32,000 nucleotides of DNA. It comes from Candidatus Thorarchaeota archaeon. Lineage in GTDB: Archaea > Asgardarchaeota > Thorarchaeia > Thorarchaeales > Thorarchaeaceae. The stretch lies in assembly GCA_003345555.1 (NCBI GenBank), contig PRDJ01000026.1, positions 1-32,000 of the forward strand, written 5' to 3'. The position numbers and the translations under genes were made by a program. The notes beneath the pieces were generated by a model, which worked only from the letters and a program-made list of their open reading frames with translations, made no database searches and was not told the DNA's origin. Of this stretch, positions 2,333 through 31,285 are shown piece by piece. Every line of letters begins with the position of its first letter. Within the stretch, counting starts at the first letter, position 1.

Positions 2333-5107
2333 TCAGTATAGCTGCACAGGGATCCAGATTGTTCGCCACTCAGATGCCAGTGTGGGCTCGCCAGATGTAA
2401 CTCCATCCCAGAATAGGATACGAATCTGATAGTTCATTCCGGGCCGAAGGGTGACATCTTCAGAGCTTGAAGCGCCTAGCGGTAGGAAGAACTCTGTGAT
2501 GTTCGTACCGGTTGCGAAGTGAGTAGCATTGGCGCCGCCAGTGTCATAGGACCAGTCGCCGTTATAGTCTATGTGGCCGTCGTAGGCCTGGTGACCTTGG
2601 TAGTTGATAATGCGCAGGTCTGACTTGTCAACTGAGCCCAACGGGGCAATCTGTATGCCTAGAGCATCGTTGCCCGTCTGGTAGCCGGGCAGATTGACAC
2701 CAAAGTATATGCGACTGGAGTTGCCTTGGATGTAGACTTTCGCGTCAAACCCGCTTCCCAAGACTGCATCAAAGCTCGCGAATGCCTTCTCACCAGTAGA
2801 CAGGACACCGTCCATTTTGGCAGACGTAAGGTCACCAATCTTTGGTGCCCACTGGGCATTGGTTCTGTTGATGTAATGATAGTACATCGTGTAGTCGATA
2901 TCATAGATCTTGACGAGACCATAGTCTGAGCTAACATAGGCATTCGTGAATGCGCCATGCAAGTCAACTGGCATGTGACCAATCCAGCGAGAGTCGTACA
3001 TATAGCCACCATTATACTCATCGACACTCAGGCGAGCTGAACTGAGGCCCATGGAATTGCCCTCATCTGGACTCGTGGGTTCTCCATAAGACAGCAGCTT
3101 GAACAGTGTTGACGAGTAGAATGCGTCGAGTGTGTAATCGGTCTCGTGAATACTGGTGGTCGATGGATCATCACCTAGATATGTGGCATCATCTATCGTC
3201 TTGGTTCCGAGATAGTCCTCAGCGATACGAACCATCCAAGGCCATTTTCCATCATCCCCACCGAACCCAGCGATCTCATGTCCCCAGTAGACGAGTATCT
3301 GTGTTGCGTTCCAAAGCTTGAAAATCCTAAGGGACTCGGTGAGATTGAGTGCCATCAAAGCATAGCCCATCAGAGCTATCTGAGTGCCGTTGATGGTTGC
3401 ATTATCAACAACTGTGTCGGCTCCGCCTGCGCCGTTTATCCAGTATCCATAATCCCACCAGCTCGCAACTGTGGCTCCACTAGGCATGACGCTGCGTACG
3501 TGTGTCATGGCAGTCTGCCAGTCCCGCCACTGCCCTGAAGTCGAATAGATACTGATGGGAGCAAACTCGGGACCGCCCATGTTTACACCATACTGAATTC
3601 CCAAATAGACATTGACCGAAAGCAGAAGACCGACGAACGTGAATGCTGCGAGTGCATGTTCTGATGTCAAGGATGTACTAATCCTGAATCGTCGACGCTC
3701 AAAAACCGACTTCTGAGCAACGACCTTAGCGAACGGTGCAAGAACGAAATCCACCGCGACTGCTGCAAGCAAAGCTACTGCAGGAGCCAGAATGAGACCA
3801 AGACGAATCATGCTACCGGTGAAGTATACTGCGGCCAATCCAAACAGCACAACAAGCCAGTCTTCGTCCTTACCTCTCTTAAACAGGAAATACATACCGA
3901 GAGGAAACAGGAATATTAAGACTGAAAGTGTCTGATAGAAGCTCGCCCAAGGAGCGGGCAGATGCTCGGCGACGGAGTTGAAGATTCGCTGCTCTAATCT
4001 GAAAAATGGATTTATTACAGCCAAGAACTTCCCGCCTACGAACGTTATAGGATTAGACCCGACTGTTGATATTGACAGGTTCTGACTTGTTTCGTAGGCG
4101 AAGTATGCAGCGACTCCCACGATAGGGGCTACTAAGCCGAGTAGAATTGGTTTTGCGTGGGGTGCAAGAGCGCCTGCGGTGGCGTGACGGTATCTCGCTA
4201 CCCGTAGCCACACCTCATAGCACGCAAGCACGGCCCCGACACCGACGGGAGCAAGGAATGCGAGAGATGTGAGAGTACCCGAAGTCTCGAAACTGCTTCT
4301 AGGCAGCAAACCTCCTATAAACAGCCCAATGCTGAGTGTGATTAGGTAGCTAGACAGAAGCCGCCTGCTGTATCGACCCGTGACCAGCATGAGTGCTCCA
4401 AAAAGTGCGAATAGATCGGTTAGAAAATCGGAAGCACCCCATGAAATCTGAAGATAGCCTAAGCAAAGTCCTGCAGCTACAGCGGATGGCAAAGATCCCC
4501 TCTTGAGAGCGCGAACAAAGAACAAGAGTGTGATGACGATTGCAAAGATACCAACAGACTCGTTATCAAAAAAGCCGGCAGTGGTTCTCTGTATGTAAGC
4601 CGGCATGAATGCCATGAACAACGAGCTCAATAGGCCGACGGCCTTGTTTGAGAGTTCCTTGCCCAGAAAGAACGTGATCAGTGTCGTGCATGCGCCCATG
4701 AATGAGGACATCATTATAGAGACCGTTAACACATCGATGCTGATGCCGAGGCCATTAACAATGAAGTATAGTGTCGCAGCTGTAAACGGCACACCAATGT
4801 ATGTCGAAGCAGGAATGCTGCGGCCGAACGGAACCCAGCTGGTATAATCGTACCAGCTGAAGAAGGATGCGTAACCATTTGCCGCGACGTACTCTGTCAC
4901 TTTGAGCTGGTACCAGCAGTCAAACTCGTGGACTACTGGCTGCGAGCTCATCATAGGCGCCAGACGGACTGCCAAGGCCGCAAAGAACAGAATCGTAAGT
5001 GCGACTACTAGGAGAATAGAGCCTCTAGATATCTTCGCCTTTGGTTTATGGAAGACCTGTCGGAACAGCCTTCCGATTGATTTCTTGAAGCTTCTGAGAC
5101 TCGGCAT
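2333..5107 (-). CDS. aglB: Oligosaccharyltransferase catalytic subunit STT3/AglB with extra C-terminal domain
   Basis: EFD, GFFDNE, SVAEH, WWDYG, DNATINGT and DDGKWPWMVRI motifs with many TM helices. ATG 5107 is preceded by GGAG; the track extends to TTG 5146. Confidence 0.95.
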   Translation of the reverse strand: MPSLRSFKKSIGRLFRQVFHKPKAKISRGSILLVVALTILFFAALAVRLAPMMSSQPVVHEFDCWYQLKVTEYVAANGYASFFSWYDYTSWVPFGRSIPASTYIGVPFTAATLYFIVNGLGISIDVLTVSIMMSSFMGACTTLITFFLGKELSNKAVGLLSSLFMAFMPAYIQRTTAGFFDNESVGIFAIVITLLFFVRALKRGSLPSAVAAGLCLGYLQISWGASDFLTDLFALFGALMLVTGRYSRRLLSSYLITLSIGLFIGGLLPRSSFETSGTLTSLAFLAPVGVGAVLACYEVWLRVARYRHATAGALAPHAKPILLGLVAPIVGVAAYFAYETSQNLSISTVGSNPITFVGGKFLAVINPFFRLEQRIFNSVAEHLPAPWASFYQTLSVLIFLFPLGMYFLFKRGKDEDWLVVLFGLAAVYFTGSMIRLGLILAPAVALLAAVAVDFVLAPFAKVVAQKSVFERRRFRISTSLTSEHALAAFTFVGLLLSVNVYLGIQYGVNMGGPEFAPISIYSTSGQWRDWQTAMTHVRSVMPSGATVASWWDYGYWINGAGGADTVVDNATINGTQIALMGYALMALNLTESLRIFKLWNATQILVYWGHEIAGFGGDDGKWPWMVRIAEDYLGTKTIDDATYLGDDPSTTSIHETDYTLDAFYSSTLFKLLSYGEPTSPDEGNSMGLSSARLSVDEYNGGYMYDSRWIGHMPVDLHGAFTNAYVSSDYGLVKIYDIDYTMYYHYINRTNAQWAPKIGDLTSAKMDGVLSTGEKAFASFDAVLGSGFDAKVYIQGNSSRIYFGVNLPGYQTGNDALGIQIAPLGSVDKSDLRIINYQGHQAYDGHIDYNGDWSYDTGGANATHFATGTNITEFFLPLGASSSEDVTLRPGMNYQIRILFWDGVTSGEPTLASEWRTIWIPVQLY

Positions 5108-24572: not shown

Positions 24573-24691
24573 TATAATTGCCCTGCAACTTAACATAATA
24601 CTTAAATGATATCCATCGAGGCTAGAACCCGTTCTGTTTCTTTCCGTGCCTAGTAGCTCGGTCTGTGTGAAATAGGCGAAGGTGTACTGTG

Positions 24692-24943
24692 ATGGGAAGA
24701 AGAAGAAGGCAGAAAATCCGGAGAAGACCTCAGAAGCGAATTCCAGATGTGTATCAGTGTCCGGATTGTGGCAACGCTGCAATCAAGATAGAGCTGTTCA
24801 GGGACAAGAGTCTCGCGACAGTGAAGTGTGGGTCATGCGGTTTGGAGATGACCATTGACGATGTGAGTTCGCTTACCGAGCCAGTAGACGTTTACGGTAG
24901 CTTCATAGACAAGTTCTATGAAGGAGACAAGACGGAGAAGTAG
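24692..24943 (+). CDS. elf1: Transcription elongation factor Elf1
   Basis: MGRRRR basic N-terminus, YQCPDCG...KCGSCG, and EPVDVYGSFID. Confidence 0.93.
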   Translation: MGRRRRQKIRRRPQKRIPDVYQCPDCGNAAIKIELFRDKSLATVKCGSCGLEMTIDDVSSLTEPVDVYGSFIDKFYEGDKTEK

Positions 24944-25009
24944 CCCGCTCGTCTCACTGCACTCAGCAATGATTATAAGTATGGCTCAAGCAGGAGATGT
25001 TCGACGCCT

Positions 25010-25120
25010 ATGCAGCAGAGCCTCATCCCGATTGTTAACATTGTCTTGAGCATTTTGGGTATTGTGGCCCTTCTCCTTGTGCTAGGTTATATCGCATACG
25101 GTCAAGAGGAAGAGGAATAG
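25010..25120 (+). CDS. 36-aa single-TM microprotein, OST4-like candidate (not in ORF track)
   Basis: MQQSLIPIVNIVLSILGIVALLLVLGYIAYGQEEEE*. It fills the elf1-hypothetical gap and has TTATAA at 24973-24978 and AGGAG at 24992-24996. Confidence 0.7.
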   Translation: MQQSLIPIVNIVLSILGIVALLLVLGYIAYGQEEEE

Positions 25121-25143: not shown

Positions 25144-25383
25144 ATGAACCCCTTAGAGTCGGTGCTTCACCTCGCCTTCGATAATTCCGCGCCGTATGTC
25201 ACCAACTTGGACGCTGTAAGATCACTGATTCAGCAAGCAGTGGCTCAGACCACCTCTGTCGATGATGCAGTCACCTACATCGAGAACAGATTCCCAGACG
25301 CAGAGATCACGCTCAAGACTGATATTCGCATCTTAGTTGCTGCCATTCGCCATGCCGCCCGACAAAGGAAGTTATCTGGATGA
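25144..25383 (+). CDS. Hypothetical helical protein (79 aa)
   Basis: Fills the gap, has protein-like composition and an ATGA overlap with the lhr start. Confidence 0.7.
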   Translation: MNPLESVLHLAFDNSAPYVTNLDAVRSLIQQAVAQTTSVDDAVTYIENRFPDAEITLKTDIRILVAAIRHAARQRKLSG

Positions 25384-28220
25384 GCGCGTTTGAGTCGCTA
25401 GGACCGGAAATTTCCAGATTCCTATCTGACCATGGTATCGGCTCACCAACGCCCATTCAAGAGCTGGCAATTCCCGCCATCCTACATGACCGCAGCGATG
25501 CGTTGCTCTTGGCCCCCACAGGCAGTGGCAAGACAGAAGCGGCTCTCCTACCGCTACTGAGAATCCTGAAAGAGAGACAGTCGCAGAGCGAGTTGTATGG
25601 GATCTACATTCTGTACATCACGCCTCTCAGGGCACTAAATCGAGACGTGCTCTTGAGAATCGAAAGCCTATGCAATCGTCTTGGCCTGAGTGTAGCTGTG
25701 CGGCACGGCGATACGACGCAGTATGTGCGGAGACAACAGGCCCTTAATCCCCCGAATCTCTTGATAACAACCCCGGAATCGCTTCAGGCAATTCTGCCAG
25801 CCCAGAGACTTAGATATCATCTAAGGACTGTCTTTGCGGTCGTCGTCGACGAAATTCATGAAATGGCAGATAGCAAGAGAGGCACACAGCTTAGCTTGGG
25901 TCTTCAGCGACTGGACAGAATCGCGGGTACAAGGACCCAGCGTATCGGGCTTTCTGCAACGGTTGGAAATCCAAAGGATGTCGCAAGCCTATTGGCTGGA
26001 ACAGGGCGACAAGTCAAGATTCTATGGGCCGGATATGAGCTGAGGAAGATGAATCTAAGGGTCGAGATGCCTGTCCCGAATGCAGAGGATCAGGAGACAT
26101 CGAGAAGAATCTCATACCCTTTGAACTCAACAGCGCGACTCCGCAGGATAATCGAGCTTATTTCATCACACGGCTCGACGATTCTATTCACGAACACAAG
26201 ATCGTTTGCGGAAGTCCTAGGAGCCAAGATGCATGCGATTGGGCCGCCGTTTGATTTTGATGTGCACCATGGGTCGCTGTCAAAAGATGCTCGTATGACG
26301 GCTGAGACTCGACTAAAGCAGGGGCTATCAAGAGCCATAATCGCAACCTCTAGTCTTGAGCTTGGTATCGACATAGGTCATGCAGATCTCGTGTTACAGT
26401 ATTCCTCTCCGAGAGAGGTATCACGTGCTCTGCAACGCACAGGGCGAGCTGGTCATCGGTTAGGAATGGTAGCGGAAGGTGTGTTCATAGCCACTATGAA
26501 CTTGGATGATGTCACTGAATCTGGAGTCATACTCAGACGGGCTCAATTGAACAAGGTTGAAGATGCCCGAATTCCAATAAAAGCATGGGATGTCCTCTGC
26601 CATCAGATTGCCGGGATTCTTCTTGACGTCGGCGGAGCTGATGTTGATAGTGTCTTGAGATTCATCCGTTCGACACAACCCTACGCGGAAATGACCCTTG
26701 AGGAGATGAATTCCCTTCTTCATTTCATGACTGAGAAGAAAATCGTGAGTACAAATGGGAGTAGGGTCAATGGAACGCGAGCAACCCGCCTTTTCTATTA
26801 CGACCATCTGAGTACGATTCCTGATATCCGGCAACTGAGTGCCCTAGATATGACTACACGCACCCCGATTGGCGTCTTGGATGAAGATTATGTAACAGAG
26901 AATATCCAAGCTGGCTCTCTGTTCGTAATCAGAGGCCGACCTTGGACTGTCGTGAGTGTGGATGAAGACGAGGTTATCTGCGCTCCAGCAAGTGGCTCCG
27001 ACAGTGAGGCGCCACATTGGATAGGAGAGATGATTCCTGTGCCCTATGAAGTTGCTTCGGAGGTCTCGGAACTATGGCAGCATGTGCTCGAAGGAACTGA
27101 GGACGAGGTCAAATTGTGGCTACAGTCGCGATATGGAATCGCGGGGTCTCCTCAGGAATTTATTATCAGAACTGTAAGAGAGAGCAGTGAGGCTTTGGGA
27201 TGCCTTCCGTCTTTAGAGTCTCTTCTTGTTGAGGACTTCGGCACAGGTCTGGTTATTCATGTGCCACTTGGTACAAGGGCAAATGAAACATTAGGAATCG
27301 TTGTAGCGGCCTTGCTCACAACATGCATGGGAATAGATGTGAGTGTGGAAAGAGACCCGTATAGGATTCTGCTAACCGCGACTGGTCGTCTGGACCCTGA
27401 ACGGGTTGTCGATATTCTCAGAGGCTATGACGGCAAGCAGGCGTCGTCAATTCTCAGACTTGCGGTCAAGCACACACAGAGCTTTTCTTCTCGCTTCGTC
27501 CATGTCGCTCGCAGAATGGGCGTGATACGAAGGGAGACCAGAACCAAGGATGTTCCAATCAGGCGACTCATAGCCAGCCTTGAAGATAGTCCCGTCTTCC
27601 AAGAGGCAATGAGGGAGATACTGCAAGAGAAACTCGATGAAGAACGAGTTATTGACTTGTTCAATGATATTTCTGAAGGACTAATAGATATCCGAATTGT
27701 CACTACCACAAAACCATCGCCTCTCGCTAGATTGATAGTTGAAGAAAAGACACGATTTGAGATACTGGGCGAAATCACAGATGAAAGCGAAGTTCTCAGG
27801 CTTGTCGAAAACAGACTGAACGCTAGGCAGTTAAGGCTGGTATGCATGGCGAATGGTGATTGGGATTCCGTCCGAACCATATCTACGCTAAGCGACGCAA
27901 TAGAATGTCCGAAGTGTGGATCGAGAATGATAGCTGTGATTTCCCCTAGTGAATCCACGCTCACAGCGATAATGAAGATGAAACGAAAGGGCAAGACTCT
28001 CTCGAATGATGAGATGAATCAGTATTCAGCGGCAGTATTGACAGCGGAGCTTGTATCGACATACGGTAAGAGCGCGCTGATGGTATTGGCTGCACATGGT
28101 ATCGGACCGAGAACCGCATCACGCATTCTGCAATCCGGGTCCACTGATAGGCTTGCCCTCCTTAGAGAGATTGTGAGAGCGGAACGTGAATATGCAAGGA
28201 CAAGACCATTCTGGCAATGA
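25380..28220 (+). CDS. lhr: Lhr-family SF2 helicase with C-terminal Cys-rich/HhH region
   Basis: APTGSGKT, ITPLRAL, RHGDT, DEIHE, GLSAT, HHGSLS, TSSLELGIDIG, QRTGRAGH, STIPD, then CPKCGS and HGIGP..A.RIL. Confidence 0.93.
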   Translation: MSAFESLGPEISRFLSDHGIGSPTPIQELAIPAILHDRSDALLLAPTGSGKTEAALLPLLRILKERQSQSELYGIYILYITPLRALNRDVLLRIESLCNRLGLSVAVRHGDTTQYVRRQQALNPPNLLITTPESLQAILPAQRLRYHLRTVFAVVVDEIHEMADSKRGTQLSLGLQRLDRIAGTRTQRIGLSATVGNPKDVASLLAGTGRQVKILWAGYELRKMNLRVEMPVPNAEDQETSRRISYPLNSTARLRRIIELISSHGSTILFTNTRSFAEVLGAKMHAIGPPFDFDVHHGSLSKDARMTAETRLKQGLSRAIIATSSLELGIDIGHADLVLQYSSPREVSRALQRTGRAGHRLGMVAEGVFIATMNLDDVTESGVILRRAQLNKVEDARIPIKAWDVLCHQIAGILLDVGGADVDSVLRFIRSTQPYAEMTLEEMNSLLHFMTEKKIVSTNGSRVNGTRATRLFYYDHLSTIPDIRQLSALDMTTRTPIGVLDEDYVTENIQAGSLFVIRGRPWTVVSVDEDEVICAPASGSDSEAPHWIGEMIPVPYEVASEVSELWQHVLEGTEDEVKLWLQSRYGIAGSPQEFIIRTVRESSEALGCLPSLESLLVEDFGTGLVIHVPLGTRANETLGIVVAALLTTCMGIDVSVERDPYRILLTATGRLDPERVVDILRGYDGKQASSILRLAVKHTQSFSSRFVHVARRMGVIRRETRTKDVPIRRLIASLEDSPVFQEAMREILQEKLDEERVIDLFNDISEGLIDIRIVTTTKPSPLARLIVEEKTRFEILGEITDESEVLRLVENRLNARQLRLVCMANGDWDSVRTISTLSDAIECPKCGSRMIAVISPSESTLTAIMKMKRKGKTLSNDEMNQYSAAVLTAELVSTYGKSALMVLAAHGIGPRTASRILQSGSTDRLALLREIVRAEREYARTRPFWQ

Positions 28221-28806
28221 ACTGAACAAACCACTTGTGGTGGTTGCCGGGAGAAGTAATGTTGGAAAAAGCAGTCTAGTCAGAGCTCTCACCGGCAAGA
28301 GAGTCAGAATCGGCAAGCGCCCCGGCACTACGGGGCATGAAGAACTCATCGACCTAGAGTCCATAGTACTTGTGGATATGCCCGGATTTGGCTATGCTGC
28401 AGGAAAGGATAGGGCGGCCATAAATCGATTGAAGACCGGAATCGTACACAGACTCGAGAACTGGGAACGCCGACTACTCATAGCCATCCTAGTCATAGAC
28501 GTGTCACTATTCAGAGAGCTTGTGGAGAGATGGGAAAGCCGAAACGAAGTTCCTGTTGATGTGGAATTCTACGGGTTCCTTTCCGAGATTTCACAGTATG
28601 TTATTGTCGCTGCAAACAAGACCGACAAGGTGGCGAATAAGGACAAGTCGGATGAGTTCGGTTTTCTGCGTATGAAGCTATCAGAGGTCGGACAGGCCCC
28701 GGACATTATTCCTGTTTCAGTCAGAGATGCAGAGAGCATCAGAGACCTCAGAGTGAGGATTGAGAGCATCTTGAAACAGGAGGGGTTGGAAGTCCCAAGC
28801 TGGTGA
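28192..28806 (+). CDS. engB: EngB/YihA-family GTP-binding protein
   Basis: G1 GRSNVGKSS, RPGTT, G3 DMPGFG, G4 NKTD. Start is uncertain and overlaps the lhr 3' end. Confidence 0.9.
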   Translation: MQGQDHSGNELNKPLVVVAGRSNVGKSSLVRALTGKRVRIGKRPGTTGHEELIDLESIVLVDMPGFGYAAGKDRAAINRLKTGIVHRLENWERRLLIAILVIDVSLFRELVERWESRNEVPVDVEFYGFLSEISQYVIVAANKTDKVANKDKSDEFGFLRMKLSEVGQAPDIIPVSVRDAESIRDLRVRIESILKQEGLEVPSW

Positions 28807-30001: not shown

Positions 30002-30388
30002 CTAGTCAGTCCTTCTCCAGTAGACAAAGAGGATTCGCCTTTCCGCGTCTGTCGACTCGACAACCTCATAGGAATTGCGGATTTGTGCGATTCTCTGGGC
30101 AAGGAGATGATAACAGGCATCCACTTTCCTTGCTATTACAACTGACTGATAGAAGCTCCTGCAACTGCAGTAGATTTCTGGAATAACGAGGTACTCCCGT
30201 CTGAGCCCTCTGATAATCCAAGCAGTTGAGCCGCTTGGTTTGAAATGGTATTCTGCGACACGGCACTCCTCGACAGCTCTTAACGCTCTAATGAACCTCA
30301 GTCCATACTTGCCCCGGAAGTACTCGATATCGGCCTGTTTCAGTTCGTCTTTGGATATGAGGGCGACTTCATGAGCAGTGAGTGTCAT
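30002..30388 (-). CDS. SWIM zinc-finger protein, SWS1/ZSWIM7-like
   Basis: YCSC..F..SV......CYHLLA SWIM motif, preceded by AL..V...PSG..WII.G...Y. Confidence 0.82.
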   Translation of the reverse strand: MTLTAHEVALISKDELKQADIEYFRGKYGLRFIRALRAVEECRVAEYHFKPSGSTAWIIRGLRREYLVIPEIYCSCRSFYQSVVIARKVDACYHLLAQRIAQIRNSYEVVESTDAERRILFVYWRRTD

Positions 30389-30451
30389 TTCTTATCACGC
30401 AACTACCCATATGGCTATGCTAAAATGCTACGGGCCTCATTCACGCAATCA

Positions 30452-31285
30452 ATGGAGATAATCTTCGAGGACAGATGCCTTGTTGTTCGGTCCGATGTAT
30501 TGAATGCGCTTCTAGTGTCCGATATACATTTGGGTTTTCGTGTCGAACTAGAACATCGTACAGGCATTAGTTATCCCCCAGACCATCCACTGTTGTTGAA
30601 CCAGCTTCAGGCTATTGTCAAGAAACACTCTGTATCTGCACTGTACATAATTGGTGACCTTAAGCACACCATAGTCCCCGACAATTCATATGATTGGGAA
30701 ATCATCCCCGAGTTCATGACAATGATTTCAAGGGATATTGACACAACCATCATACCTGGTAACCATGATGGGTCAATAGAAGGGCTCCTTCCCAGGAAAG
30801 TCGGAATCGCAGATGTTCATGGATTGACTATTGGACATGATAGTGACACACTCGGTCTCCTTCACGGTCACGCATGGCCATCAGCAGACGTTCTTCGTTC
30901 TTCGGTCATCGTTGTCGGCCACAACCACCCAAGTCTGAATCGCATTAGGACTGTTTCAGCCCGACTAAATGGCAGGCAGAACCGAAGAAGATCAGTCGGA
31001 TTCATGCCAGTGGTATTGCGCTCGAGATTGAACAAGAACTGTGTCCGCATGAATATCGGAGAGCCAGAAGACCTGATTGACTCTGAGGGCATTCTGATAA
31101 CTCTGCCAAGCTTCAACCCTCTGATTTCCGGGATTCAAGTTAATCTATCAGGTTCGAGACTGCAAGGACCGATTTTCGAAACCGGATGTGCGGAGCTTCG
31201 AAGCTCCGAAGTCTATAGCGTCGATGGCGTGTTTCTTGGGACTGTAGATACACTACAGGCGTCAGTGGACGAAACCATTAAATGA
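30452..31285 (+). CDS. Calcineurin-like metallophosphoesterase (ICC-like, Lhr-associated MPE type)
   Basis: SDIHLG, GDLKH, GNHD, HGH, GHNHP and LPSFNPL. ATG 30452 preferred, since 30371 would overlap the divergent SWIM gene. Confidence 0.88.
   Translation: MEIIFEDRCLVVRSDVLNALLVSDIHLGFRVELEHRTGISYPPDHPLLLNQLQAIVKKHSVSALYIIGDLKHTIVPDNSYDWEIIPEFMTMISRDIDTTIIPGNHDGSIEGLLPRKVGIADVHGLTIGHDSDTLGLLHGHAWPSADVLRSSVIVVGHNHPSLNRIRTVSARLNGRQNRRRSVGFMPVVLRSRLNKNCVRMNIGEPEDLIDSEGILITLPSFNPLISGIQVNLSGSRLQGPIFETGCAELRSSEVYSVDGVFLGTVDTLQASVDETIK

Follow-up and report, generated by a model that had tools for sequence, protein, structure and literature searches.

A conserved 36-residue membrane micro-protein of Thorarchaeota with Ost4-like features and a predicted seat on STT3

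Eukaryotic OST4 (PF10215; 1RKL, 2LAT, 6EZN, 6S7O), the closest described system to the micro-protein analyzed here, has 36–37 residues, one transmembrane (TM) helix in an N-out/C-in topology, an MI[ST]D start, a Gly followed ten residues on by a Tyr and then a His near the cytoplasmic end, and a neutral or basic tail. According to a review of cryo-EM structures, Ost4 sits between TMH1 and TMH13 of Stt3, and the Stt3–Ost4–Ost3 subcomplex is disrupted when charged residues are introduced at Ost4 positions 18–24 (PMC7226087). Homologues of Ost4 and Ost5, small subunits of the oligosaccharyltransferase (OST), were reported in most Asgard classes (Eme et al., 2023, Nature 618:992; PMC10307638), so the earlier statement of a sequence-only reading of this DNA that no archaeal OST4 was known is outdated. 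In this study, the Pfam Ost4 profile (PF10215; gathering score, 25 bits) passed its cut-off in 0 of 400 Asgard genomes, therefore the published calls must rest on more sensitive, manually curated searches.

The window, that is, the whole 32,000-nt stretch of Candidatus Thorarchaeota archaeon DNA that was analyzed, carries a micro-ORF between genes for the elongation factor Elf1 and a 79-aa protein, with genes for STT3 and an OST3/OST6-family protein elsewhere on the opposite strand (Table 1). The micro-ORF starts with ATG 66 nt 3′ of the elf1 end, comprises 36 codons and ends 24 nt 5′ of the 79-aa ORF. Its product begins with MQ, has one hydrophobic TM helix at approximately residues 5–30, and ends in an acidic tail (QEEEE).

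Table 1. Features of the window, and one candidate locus elsewhere in the same genome
Feature	Position	Strand	Basis
STT3/AglB catalytic OST subunit, predicted partner	2336..5107	-	Pfam PF02516, alignment, hydropathy, complex model
OST3/OST6-family membrane protein, 147 aa	8981..9424	-	PF04756, 29.7 bits (cut-off 27); genome search agrees
Elf1 transcription elongation factor	24689..24943	+	PF05129, E 2e-18
Promoter element, BRE/TATA-type, tcagcaatgattataag	24963..24979	+	Kept in relatives' upstream DNA
Micro-ORF, 36-aa single-pass membrane micro-protein	25010..25120	+	Thorarchaeota family conservation, HMM
Four-helix protein, 79 aa, MJ1579/PF2048.1-like	25144..25383	+	AlphaFold pLDDT 92.5, Foldseek 6E4J
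Lhr-type helicase	25380..28220	+	Pfam DEAD, Helicase_C, WH_Lhr, DEAD_assoc
MMR_HSR1-type GTPase, overlapping Lhr end	28186-28806	+	
Metallophosphoesterase	30371-31285	+	
Candidate Ost5 subunit, 69-codon open frame, locus L239	G000 contig C61:19265-19426	+	Ost5/TMEM258 24.7 bits, E 6e-5

The micro-ORF is a real gene under purifying selection with its own promoter. It was found 3′ of elf1 in all 25 genomes of the Thorarchaeota family that were sampled first, and a family HMM recovered a single, intact copy from 85 of the 86 family genomes, with E values between 1e-13 and 1e-19; the sole genome without a match is 87% complete. The frame is open at all 110 loci compared, which comprise 66 distinct DNA versions and 62 distinct peptides, with a dN/dS of ~0.32 (Nei–Gojobori, 110 loci). 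Lengths across the micro-ORF family run from 33 to 44 aa. Among the 62 variants, Y27 and G31 are invariant and G17, L13, L21, and A20 are near-invariant, and the conserved residues share one helical face. Upstream, TTATAA at 24973–24978 is part of the longer element with the consensus cAGCAAyGrTTATAAG, lying ~30–45 nt 5′ of the ATG in the window, and a TATA-like element occurs at −50 to −25 relative to the ATG in every one of the 67 distinct upstream sequences from the family. Based on archaeal promoter geometry, a short-leader transcript would begin just 5′ of the micro-ORF. These data bear out the earlier proposal of a 36-residue TM micro-protein with its own TATA; its description as unannotated held only in part, since identical and related peptides stand as "hypothetical protein" in several public records.

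Public protein collections, searched with a 41-aa family member as the lead query, contain 142 clusters of the family, all "hypothetical" and none with a Pfam family. Outside the Thorarchaeota family, the weak matches of the first HMM are small open frames of 34–45 codons, and reading them revealed clear micro-ORF relatives in four more Asgard families; in some distant families a conserved TTG or GTG start stands behind an SD-like GGAG. With the widened profile, relatives were detected in 16/22, 5/6, 3/4, and 1/3 genomes of those four families, and in essentially none of the largest other Asgard families (0/31, 2/135, and 0/19 genomes). Searching 5′ of homologues of the 79-aa gene added three lineages with a similarly built micro-ORF, which start with MID.., MIVE.., or MIS.. 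and keep the same Tyr and an acidic tail. In total, members of the micro-ORF family occur in eight or more GTDB families within the Asgard archaea. In one Asgard family (L063, L064, L067, L072, and L073), the TTG start lies 8–10 nt after GGAG, the tail is long and acidic (NEEEEE..EEE.E.), and the gene is placed between herA–nurA and the gene for ribosomal protein S3Ae.

It is very improbable that the product has no function of its own, as a chance ORF or as a regulatory upstream ORF whose translation controls the MJ1579-like (79-aa) and Lhr genes. Its place as the first ORF of the operon, behind a short leader, would fit an upstream ORF, and the sole contig that an RNA-library run gave in this region (236 nt, 25516–25751) lies inside Lhr and is uninformative on micro-ORF expression; against this stand the 62 variants with their dN/dS and their invariant Y27 and G31 and near-invariant G17, the relatives in eight families, whose start codons and contexts differ, and the one family in which no MJ1579-like or Lhr gene lies downstream.

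In build, the micro-protein is similar to OST4 in its 36-residue length, its single TM helix, and a Gly with a Tyr ten residues on in the same register, to which a modelled N-out/C-in topology and a predicted seat between STT3 TM1 and TM13 can be added. The yeast and human OST4 sequences given in the sequence-only reading were letter-for-letter those of PDB chains 1RKL and 2LAT (36 and 37 aa), and an ungapped 15-residue alignment gave 6/15 identities to yeast and 6/15 to human OST4. Aligned by hhalign to an Ost4 alignment of human, yeast, and two Asgard ORFs (L098 and L082, see below), the Thorarchaeota family gave a probability of 12.5% (P 0.0023) and the eight-family alignment 24.6% (P 0.0008). 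Both runs chose the register G17=G15, Y27=Y25 (G-x9-Y), so the G...Y register proposed earlier is also hhalign's own choice, although at a probability of just 12–25%. Shuffled Ost4 TM-core columns reached the real score in 5/300 and 3/400 trials. Under the family HMM, yeast Ost4 would rank 15th and human OST4 219th among the 55,929 small ORFs of the genome, and in the reverse test an Ost4 profile ranked the micro-protein 89th of the 55,929. No better Ost4-like small ORF was found in this genome by six-frame Pfam search, Ost4-profile ranking or phmmer, the last of which, run with Ost4-like queries on every small ORF, returned no credible match.

Searches for family membership were negative. At E≤10, the Pfam Ost4 profile matched neither the peptide, nor any of 25 family members, nor the six-frame translation of the genome. 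In the PDB, OST4 chains were likewise absent at E≤10 from the matches of the peptide and of its profile, and a sister-family member retrieved none either. As had been stated before, the ISD/ITD N-terminal motif and the His are absent and the C-terminal tail is acidic: all 62 variants have M, S, T, or I where OST4 has the His behind its Tyr, the Thorarchaeota members begin with MQ instead of MI[ST]D (the MID, MIVE, and MIS starts of the synteny-found sister families are closer), and the tail reads EEEE where that of OST4 is neutral or basic. The gene is, in addition, embedded in an Lhr helicase operon. The claimed resemblance to OST4 therefore stands for size, modelled topology, register, and predicted site, and not for family membership by sequence. 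Judged from these comparisons, the sequence likeness appears real but weak, exceeding what composition alone would give and insufficient for membership. Common descent with eukaryotic OST4 is plausible rather than demonstrated, with a chance that we put a little short of even.

Two Asgard micro-ORFs, L098:1459-1587:+ and L082:1480-1593:+, both from other Asgard families and picked up by the Pfam scan, served as the positive control, as they matched only yeast or human OST4 in the PDB (E 0.07–0.15); therefore canonical-looking Asgard Ost4 ORFs exist and the PDB test can detect them. Their products are 43 and 38 aa long, combine YH or HY with a basic tail, and probably represent canonical Asgard Ost4; one of them is conserved within its genus, and a search with a canonical-looking Asgard ORF as the query matched only itself. 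They share with the micro-protein a small size, a single TM helix, the G-x9-Y spacing, and the phylum, and under the micro-ORF HMM one of them outscored all 55,929 small ORFs but the gene's own, as did five of the eight Asgard ORFs picked by the Ost4 profile. In contrast to the micro-protein, they keep the YH/HY and the basic tail, match OST4 in the PDB, and occur in other families. Among the genomes searched, none carried an Ost4-profile match together with a member of the micro-ORF family, which has little weight as the canonical type was sparsely detected. A further small-ORF family, observed in L218, L226, and L227 of the largest Asgard family sampled, ends in ..FLGIILLI.ILIY.LLTS[KR]Q[DE]; these ORFs outscored all small ORFs of the window's genome but the gene's own under the micro-ORF HMM, and all of its small ORFs under the Ost4 profile. 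This family may be an intermediate form.

STT3 of the window has 924 aa from the first ATG, with TM1 at 31–49, TM12 at 438–456, and TM13 at 486–504 by hydropathy and the WWDYG motif at 550–554, and each genome has one STT3. The complex of STT3 residues 1–640 (alignment of 23) with the micro-protein (alignment of 24) was predicted with an ipSAE of 0.75 (runs 0.75, 0.77, and 0.73), while the best of three controls scored 0.00. In a calibration set, 58 of 80 solved complexes and 2 of 110 mismatched pairs attained this mark, counts that hold only roughly here because custom alignments were used. The runs agreed in at least 89% of contacts, with a partner pLDDT of at least 75. Modelled contacts fell on STT3 residues 28–54, 154–167, 453–464, and 489–509, which include TM1, the end of TM12, and TM13, so in the model the micro-protein docks in the TM1/TM13 groove, the site of Ost4. 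On the side of the micro-protein, the lowest-error contacts were residues 17, 20, 21, 23, 24, and 27. In the model the contact pairs run antiparallel to STT3 TM1 and TM13, which would place the N-terminus outside and the C-terminus inside, as in Ost4.

The predicted interface was then compared with conservation and with Ost4. The most conserved residues all lie within the contact set, and the mean entropy is 1.24 at contact vs. 1.64 at non-contact TM positions. With the offset of +2, Ost4 residues 18–24 correspond to micro-protein residues 20–26, so that the stretch critical in Ost4 includes the lowest-error contacts 20, 21, 23, and 24. No clear pattern of compensatory changes was seen by eye in STT3 TM1 and TM13 where G17 is replaced. 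The complex model supports STT3 binding but does not show it. Because OST complexes have been solved and the controls held no TM decoy, the result may reflect a memory of a small helix beside STT3; the two partner controls were low-confidence, unrelated proteins of 36 residues and not hydrophobic helices, and the micro-protein with an unrelated 581-residue protein scored 0.00.

The same caveat leads to a different assignment, in which the micro-protein is a subunit or regulator of another membrane complex (transporter, ATPase, respiratory, or secretion) and its docking on STT3 an artefact of the remembered Ost4 groove. Short TM peptides align easily, family members give scattered sub-threshold matches to unrelated TM families (DUF4500, Sarcolamban, and holins), and the PDB profile matches are helices of CP43, MrpC, and PsaX. 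This assignment is considered unlikely, as the score with the unrelated 581-residue protein was nil, the predicted interface is the evolutionarily conserved face, the Ost4 register beats ~98–99% of shuffles, and neither the neighbourhood nor the family matches point to an alternative partner. Two leads were discarded: the DUF4500 match (18.7 bits, cut-off 27) appeared in only 3 of 25 members and was taken as a chance TM match, and the ESM Atlas look-alikes (best 0.83–0.85), all hypothetical or YldA-like, were below a meaningful level.

Other OST parts were also found in this genome, which is 93% complete. OST3/OST6 is the third member of eukaryotic subcomplex II. The OST3/OST6-family protein of the window covers just the C-terminal TM part of OST3_OST6 (183–288 of 294), and as the thioredoxin domain is absent it is a DC2/OSTC-sized form. 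The Ost5-like frame at L239, on another contig, is just below the Pfam cut-off (24.7 vs. 27.4 bits). The Ribophorin I profile (PF04597) was silent everywhere, controls included, and was thus uninformative. STT3 itself carries in its first 30 residues an unusually basic cytoplasmic N-tail that is near-invariant across the family (consensus ..KRS..RFLRQVFH.PKAKISRGS), conserved far above what is usual for such a tail. Pairing of this tail with the acidic tail of the micro-protein was considered and rejected, since the two charges do not vary together across families: the STT3 tail is least basic in the family whose micro-protein has the longest acidic tail.

The genes that accompany the micro-ORF most faithfully are not OST genes but those for the MJ1579-like protein and Lhr. 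The micro-ORF lies directly 5′ of the MJ1579-like gene in at least seven Asgard families, with gaps of 12–130 nt or a stop/start overlap, and Lhr and then the GTPase usually follow; the order micro-ORF, MJ1579-like, Lhr, GTPase also occurs in another Asgard family. The adjacency to elf1 is confined to the Thorarchaeota family, and one family has the micro-ORF between HerA–NurA and rpS3Ae instead, with no MJ1579 or Lhr gene downstream. In the window, the stop of the 79-aa gene overlaps the Lhr start and no terminator-like signal was found between the genes of the operon; Lhr is probably co-transcribed with the two small genes. The location about 20 kb from stt3, noted earlier, was confirmed, but the distance carries no weight: ~20 kb is family-level synteny in the Thorarchaeota family, and it is 59, 87, and 375 kb elsewhere.

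This arrangement could mean that the function of the micro-protein lies with the operon: it would anchor the MJ1579-like protein and Lhr at the membrane or regulate them (e.g., through the acidic cytoplasmic tail) and have no part in glycosylation. The conserved gene order, the HerA–NurA neighbours in the one further family, and the lack of a terminator-like signal between the genes in the window all speak for it. Distant MJ1579-family genes, however, stand without a micro-ORF or Lhr, so the pairing is an Asgard arrangement rather than a rule of the MJ1579 family, and it is not obligate. Besides, the conserved residues lie in the membrane on one face, which suggests a membrane-protein partner, whereas the MJ1579-like protein and Lhr have no TM segment; the model with STT3 reached 0.75 while its controls stayed at 0.00; and conserved archaeal neighbourhoods of housekeeping genes often contain unrelated genes. 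A role confined to the operon partners is thus held to be improbable.

The assignment to which we give somewhat better than an even chance is that of an Ost4-like accessory subunit lodged in the groove between TM1 and TM13 of STT3. The ORF would be translated into a single-pass membrane micro-protein, a small accessory subunit of the archaeal OST, whose conserved face (L13, G17, A20, L21, L/I24, and Y27) is predicted by the model to pack into the groove of STT3 TM1/TM12/TM13, with the N-terminus outside and the acidic tail in the cytoplasm; eukaryotic Ost4 is placed and oriented in this way. From the analogy with Ost4, we infer that it would stabilise STT3 and help to dock an Ost3/6-like subunit (subcomplex II), the STT3 binding itself being predicted in silico. 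The micro-protein probably works like Ost4 in a divergent form, and common descent is a separate question.

A broader proposal, possible yet rather doubtful, starts from the acidic-tailed family, which was found in at least eight Asgard families and in none of the searched genomes alongside the canonical type with YH and a basic tail. It may represent a second line of Ost4-type STT3 clamps, either deeply diverged or convergent. The STT3–Ost4–Ost3 subcomplex would then be pre-eukaryotic, and the coupling to the MJ1579-like and Lhr genes could also mean an unrecognised tie between glycosylation and genome maintenance. Should the micro-protein prove to be a true STT3 subunit, the whole subcomplex II (STT3, Ost4, and Ost3/6) would be present in Thorarchaeota and in several other Asgard lineages, the case for a multi-subunit N-glycosylation machine older than eukaryotes would be stronger, and a concrete 36-residue target would be at hand for biochemical tests. 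As the main idea of an Asgard Ost4 was already published in 2023, the gain is incremental. Such subunits are missed by gene callers and Pfam, and synteny with the MJ1579-like gene can find them.

Some further features of the neighbouring genes were observed. The 79-aa protein resembles Pyrococcus PF2048.1 (6E4J) with TM values of 0.80/0.87 (Foldseek), and while the 79-aa ORF itself had no match in the Pfam library used, which lacks PF27357, that family (MJ1579) is annotated on its homologues. A T-D motif (T59 and D60) is invariant in the 79-aa protein, which has 197 representative relatives at E≤0.001; PF2048.1 is an uncharacterised protein, and its 79-aa relative is tightly coupled to Lhr in Asgard archaea. 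The 79-aa profile also matched 16–17 separate stretches in the giant proteins P0122 (5165 aa) and P0215 (3006 aa), which may be repeat proteins of the 79-aa helical unit or coiled-coil noise. Finally, the set of metallophosphoesterase, micro-ORF, MJ1579-like, Lhr, and GTPase genes recurs in another Asgard family (L248), which suggests that the Lhr-centred neighbourhood is conserved.
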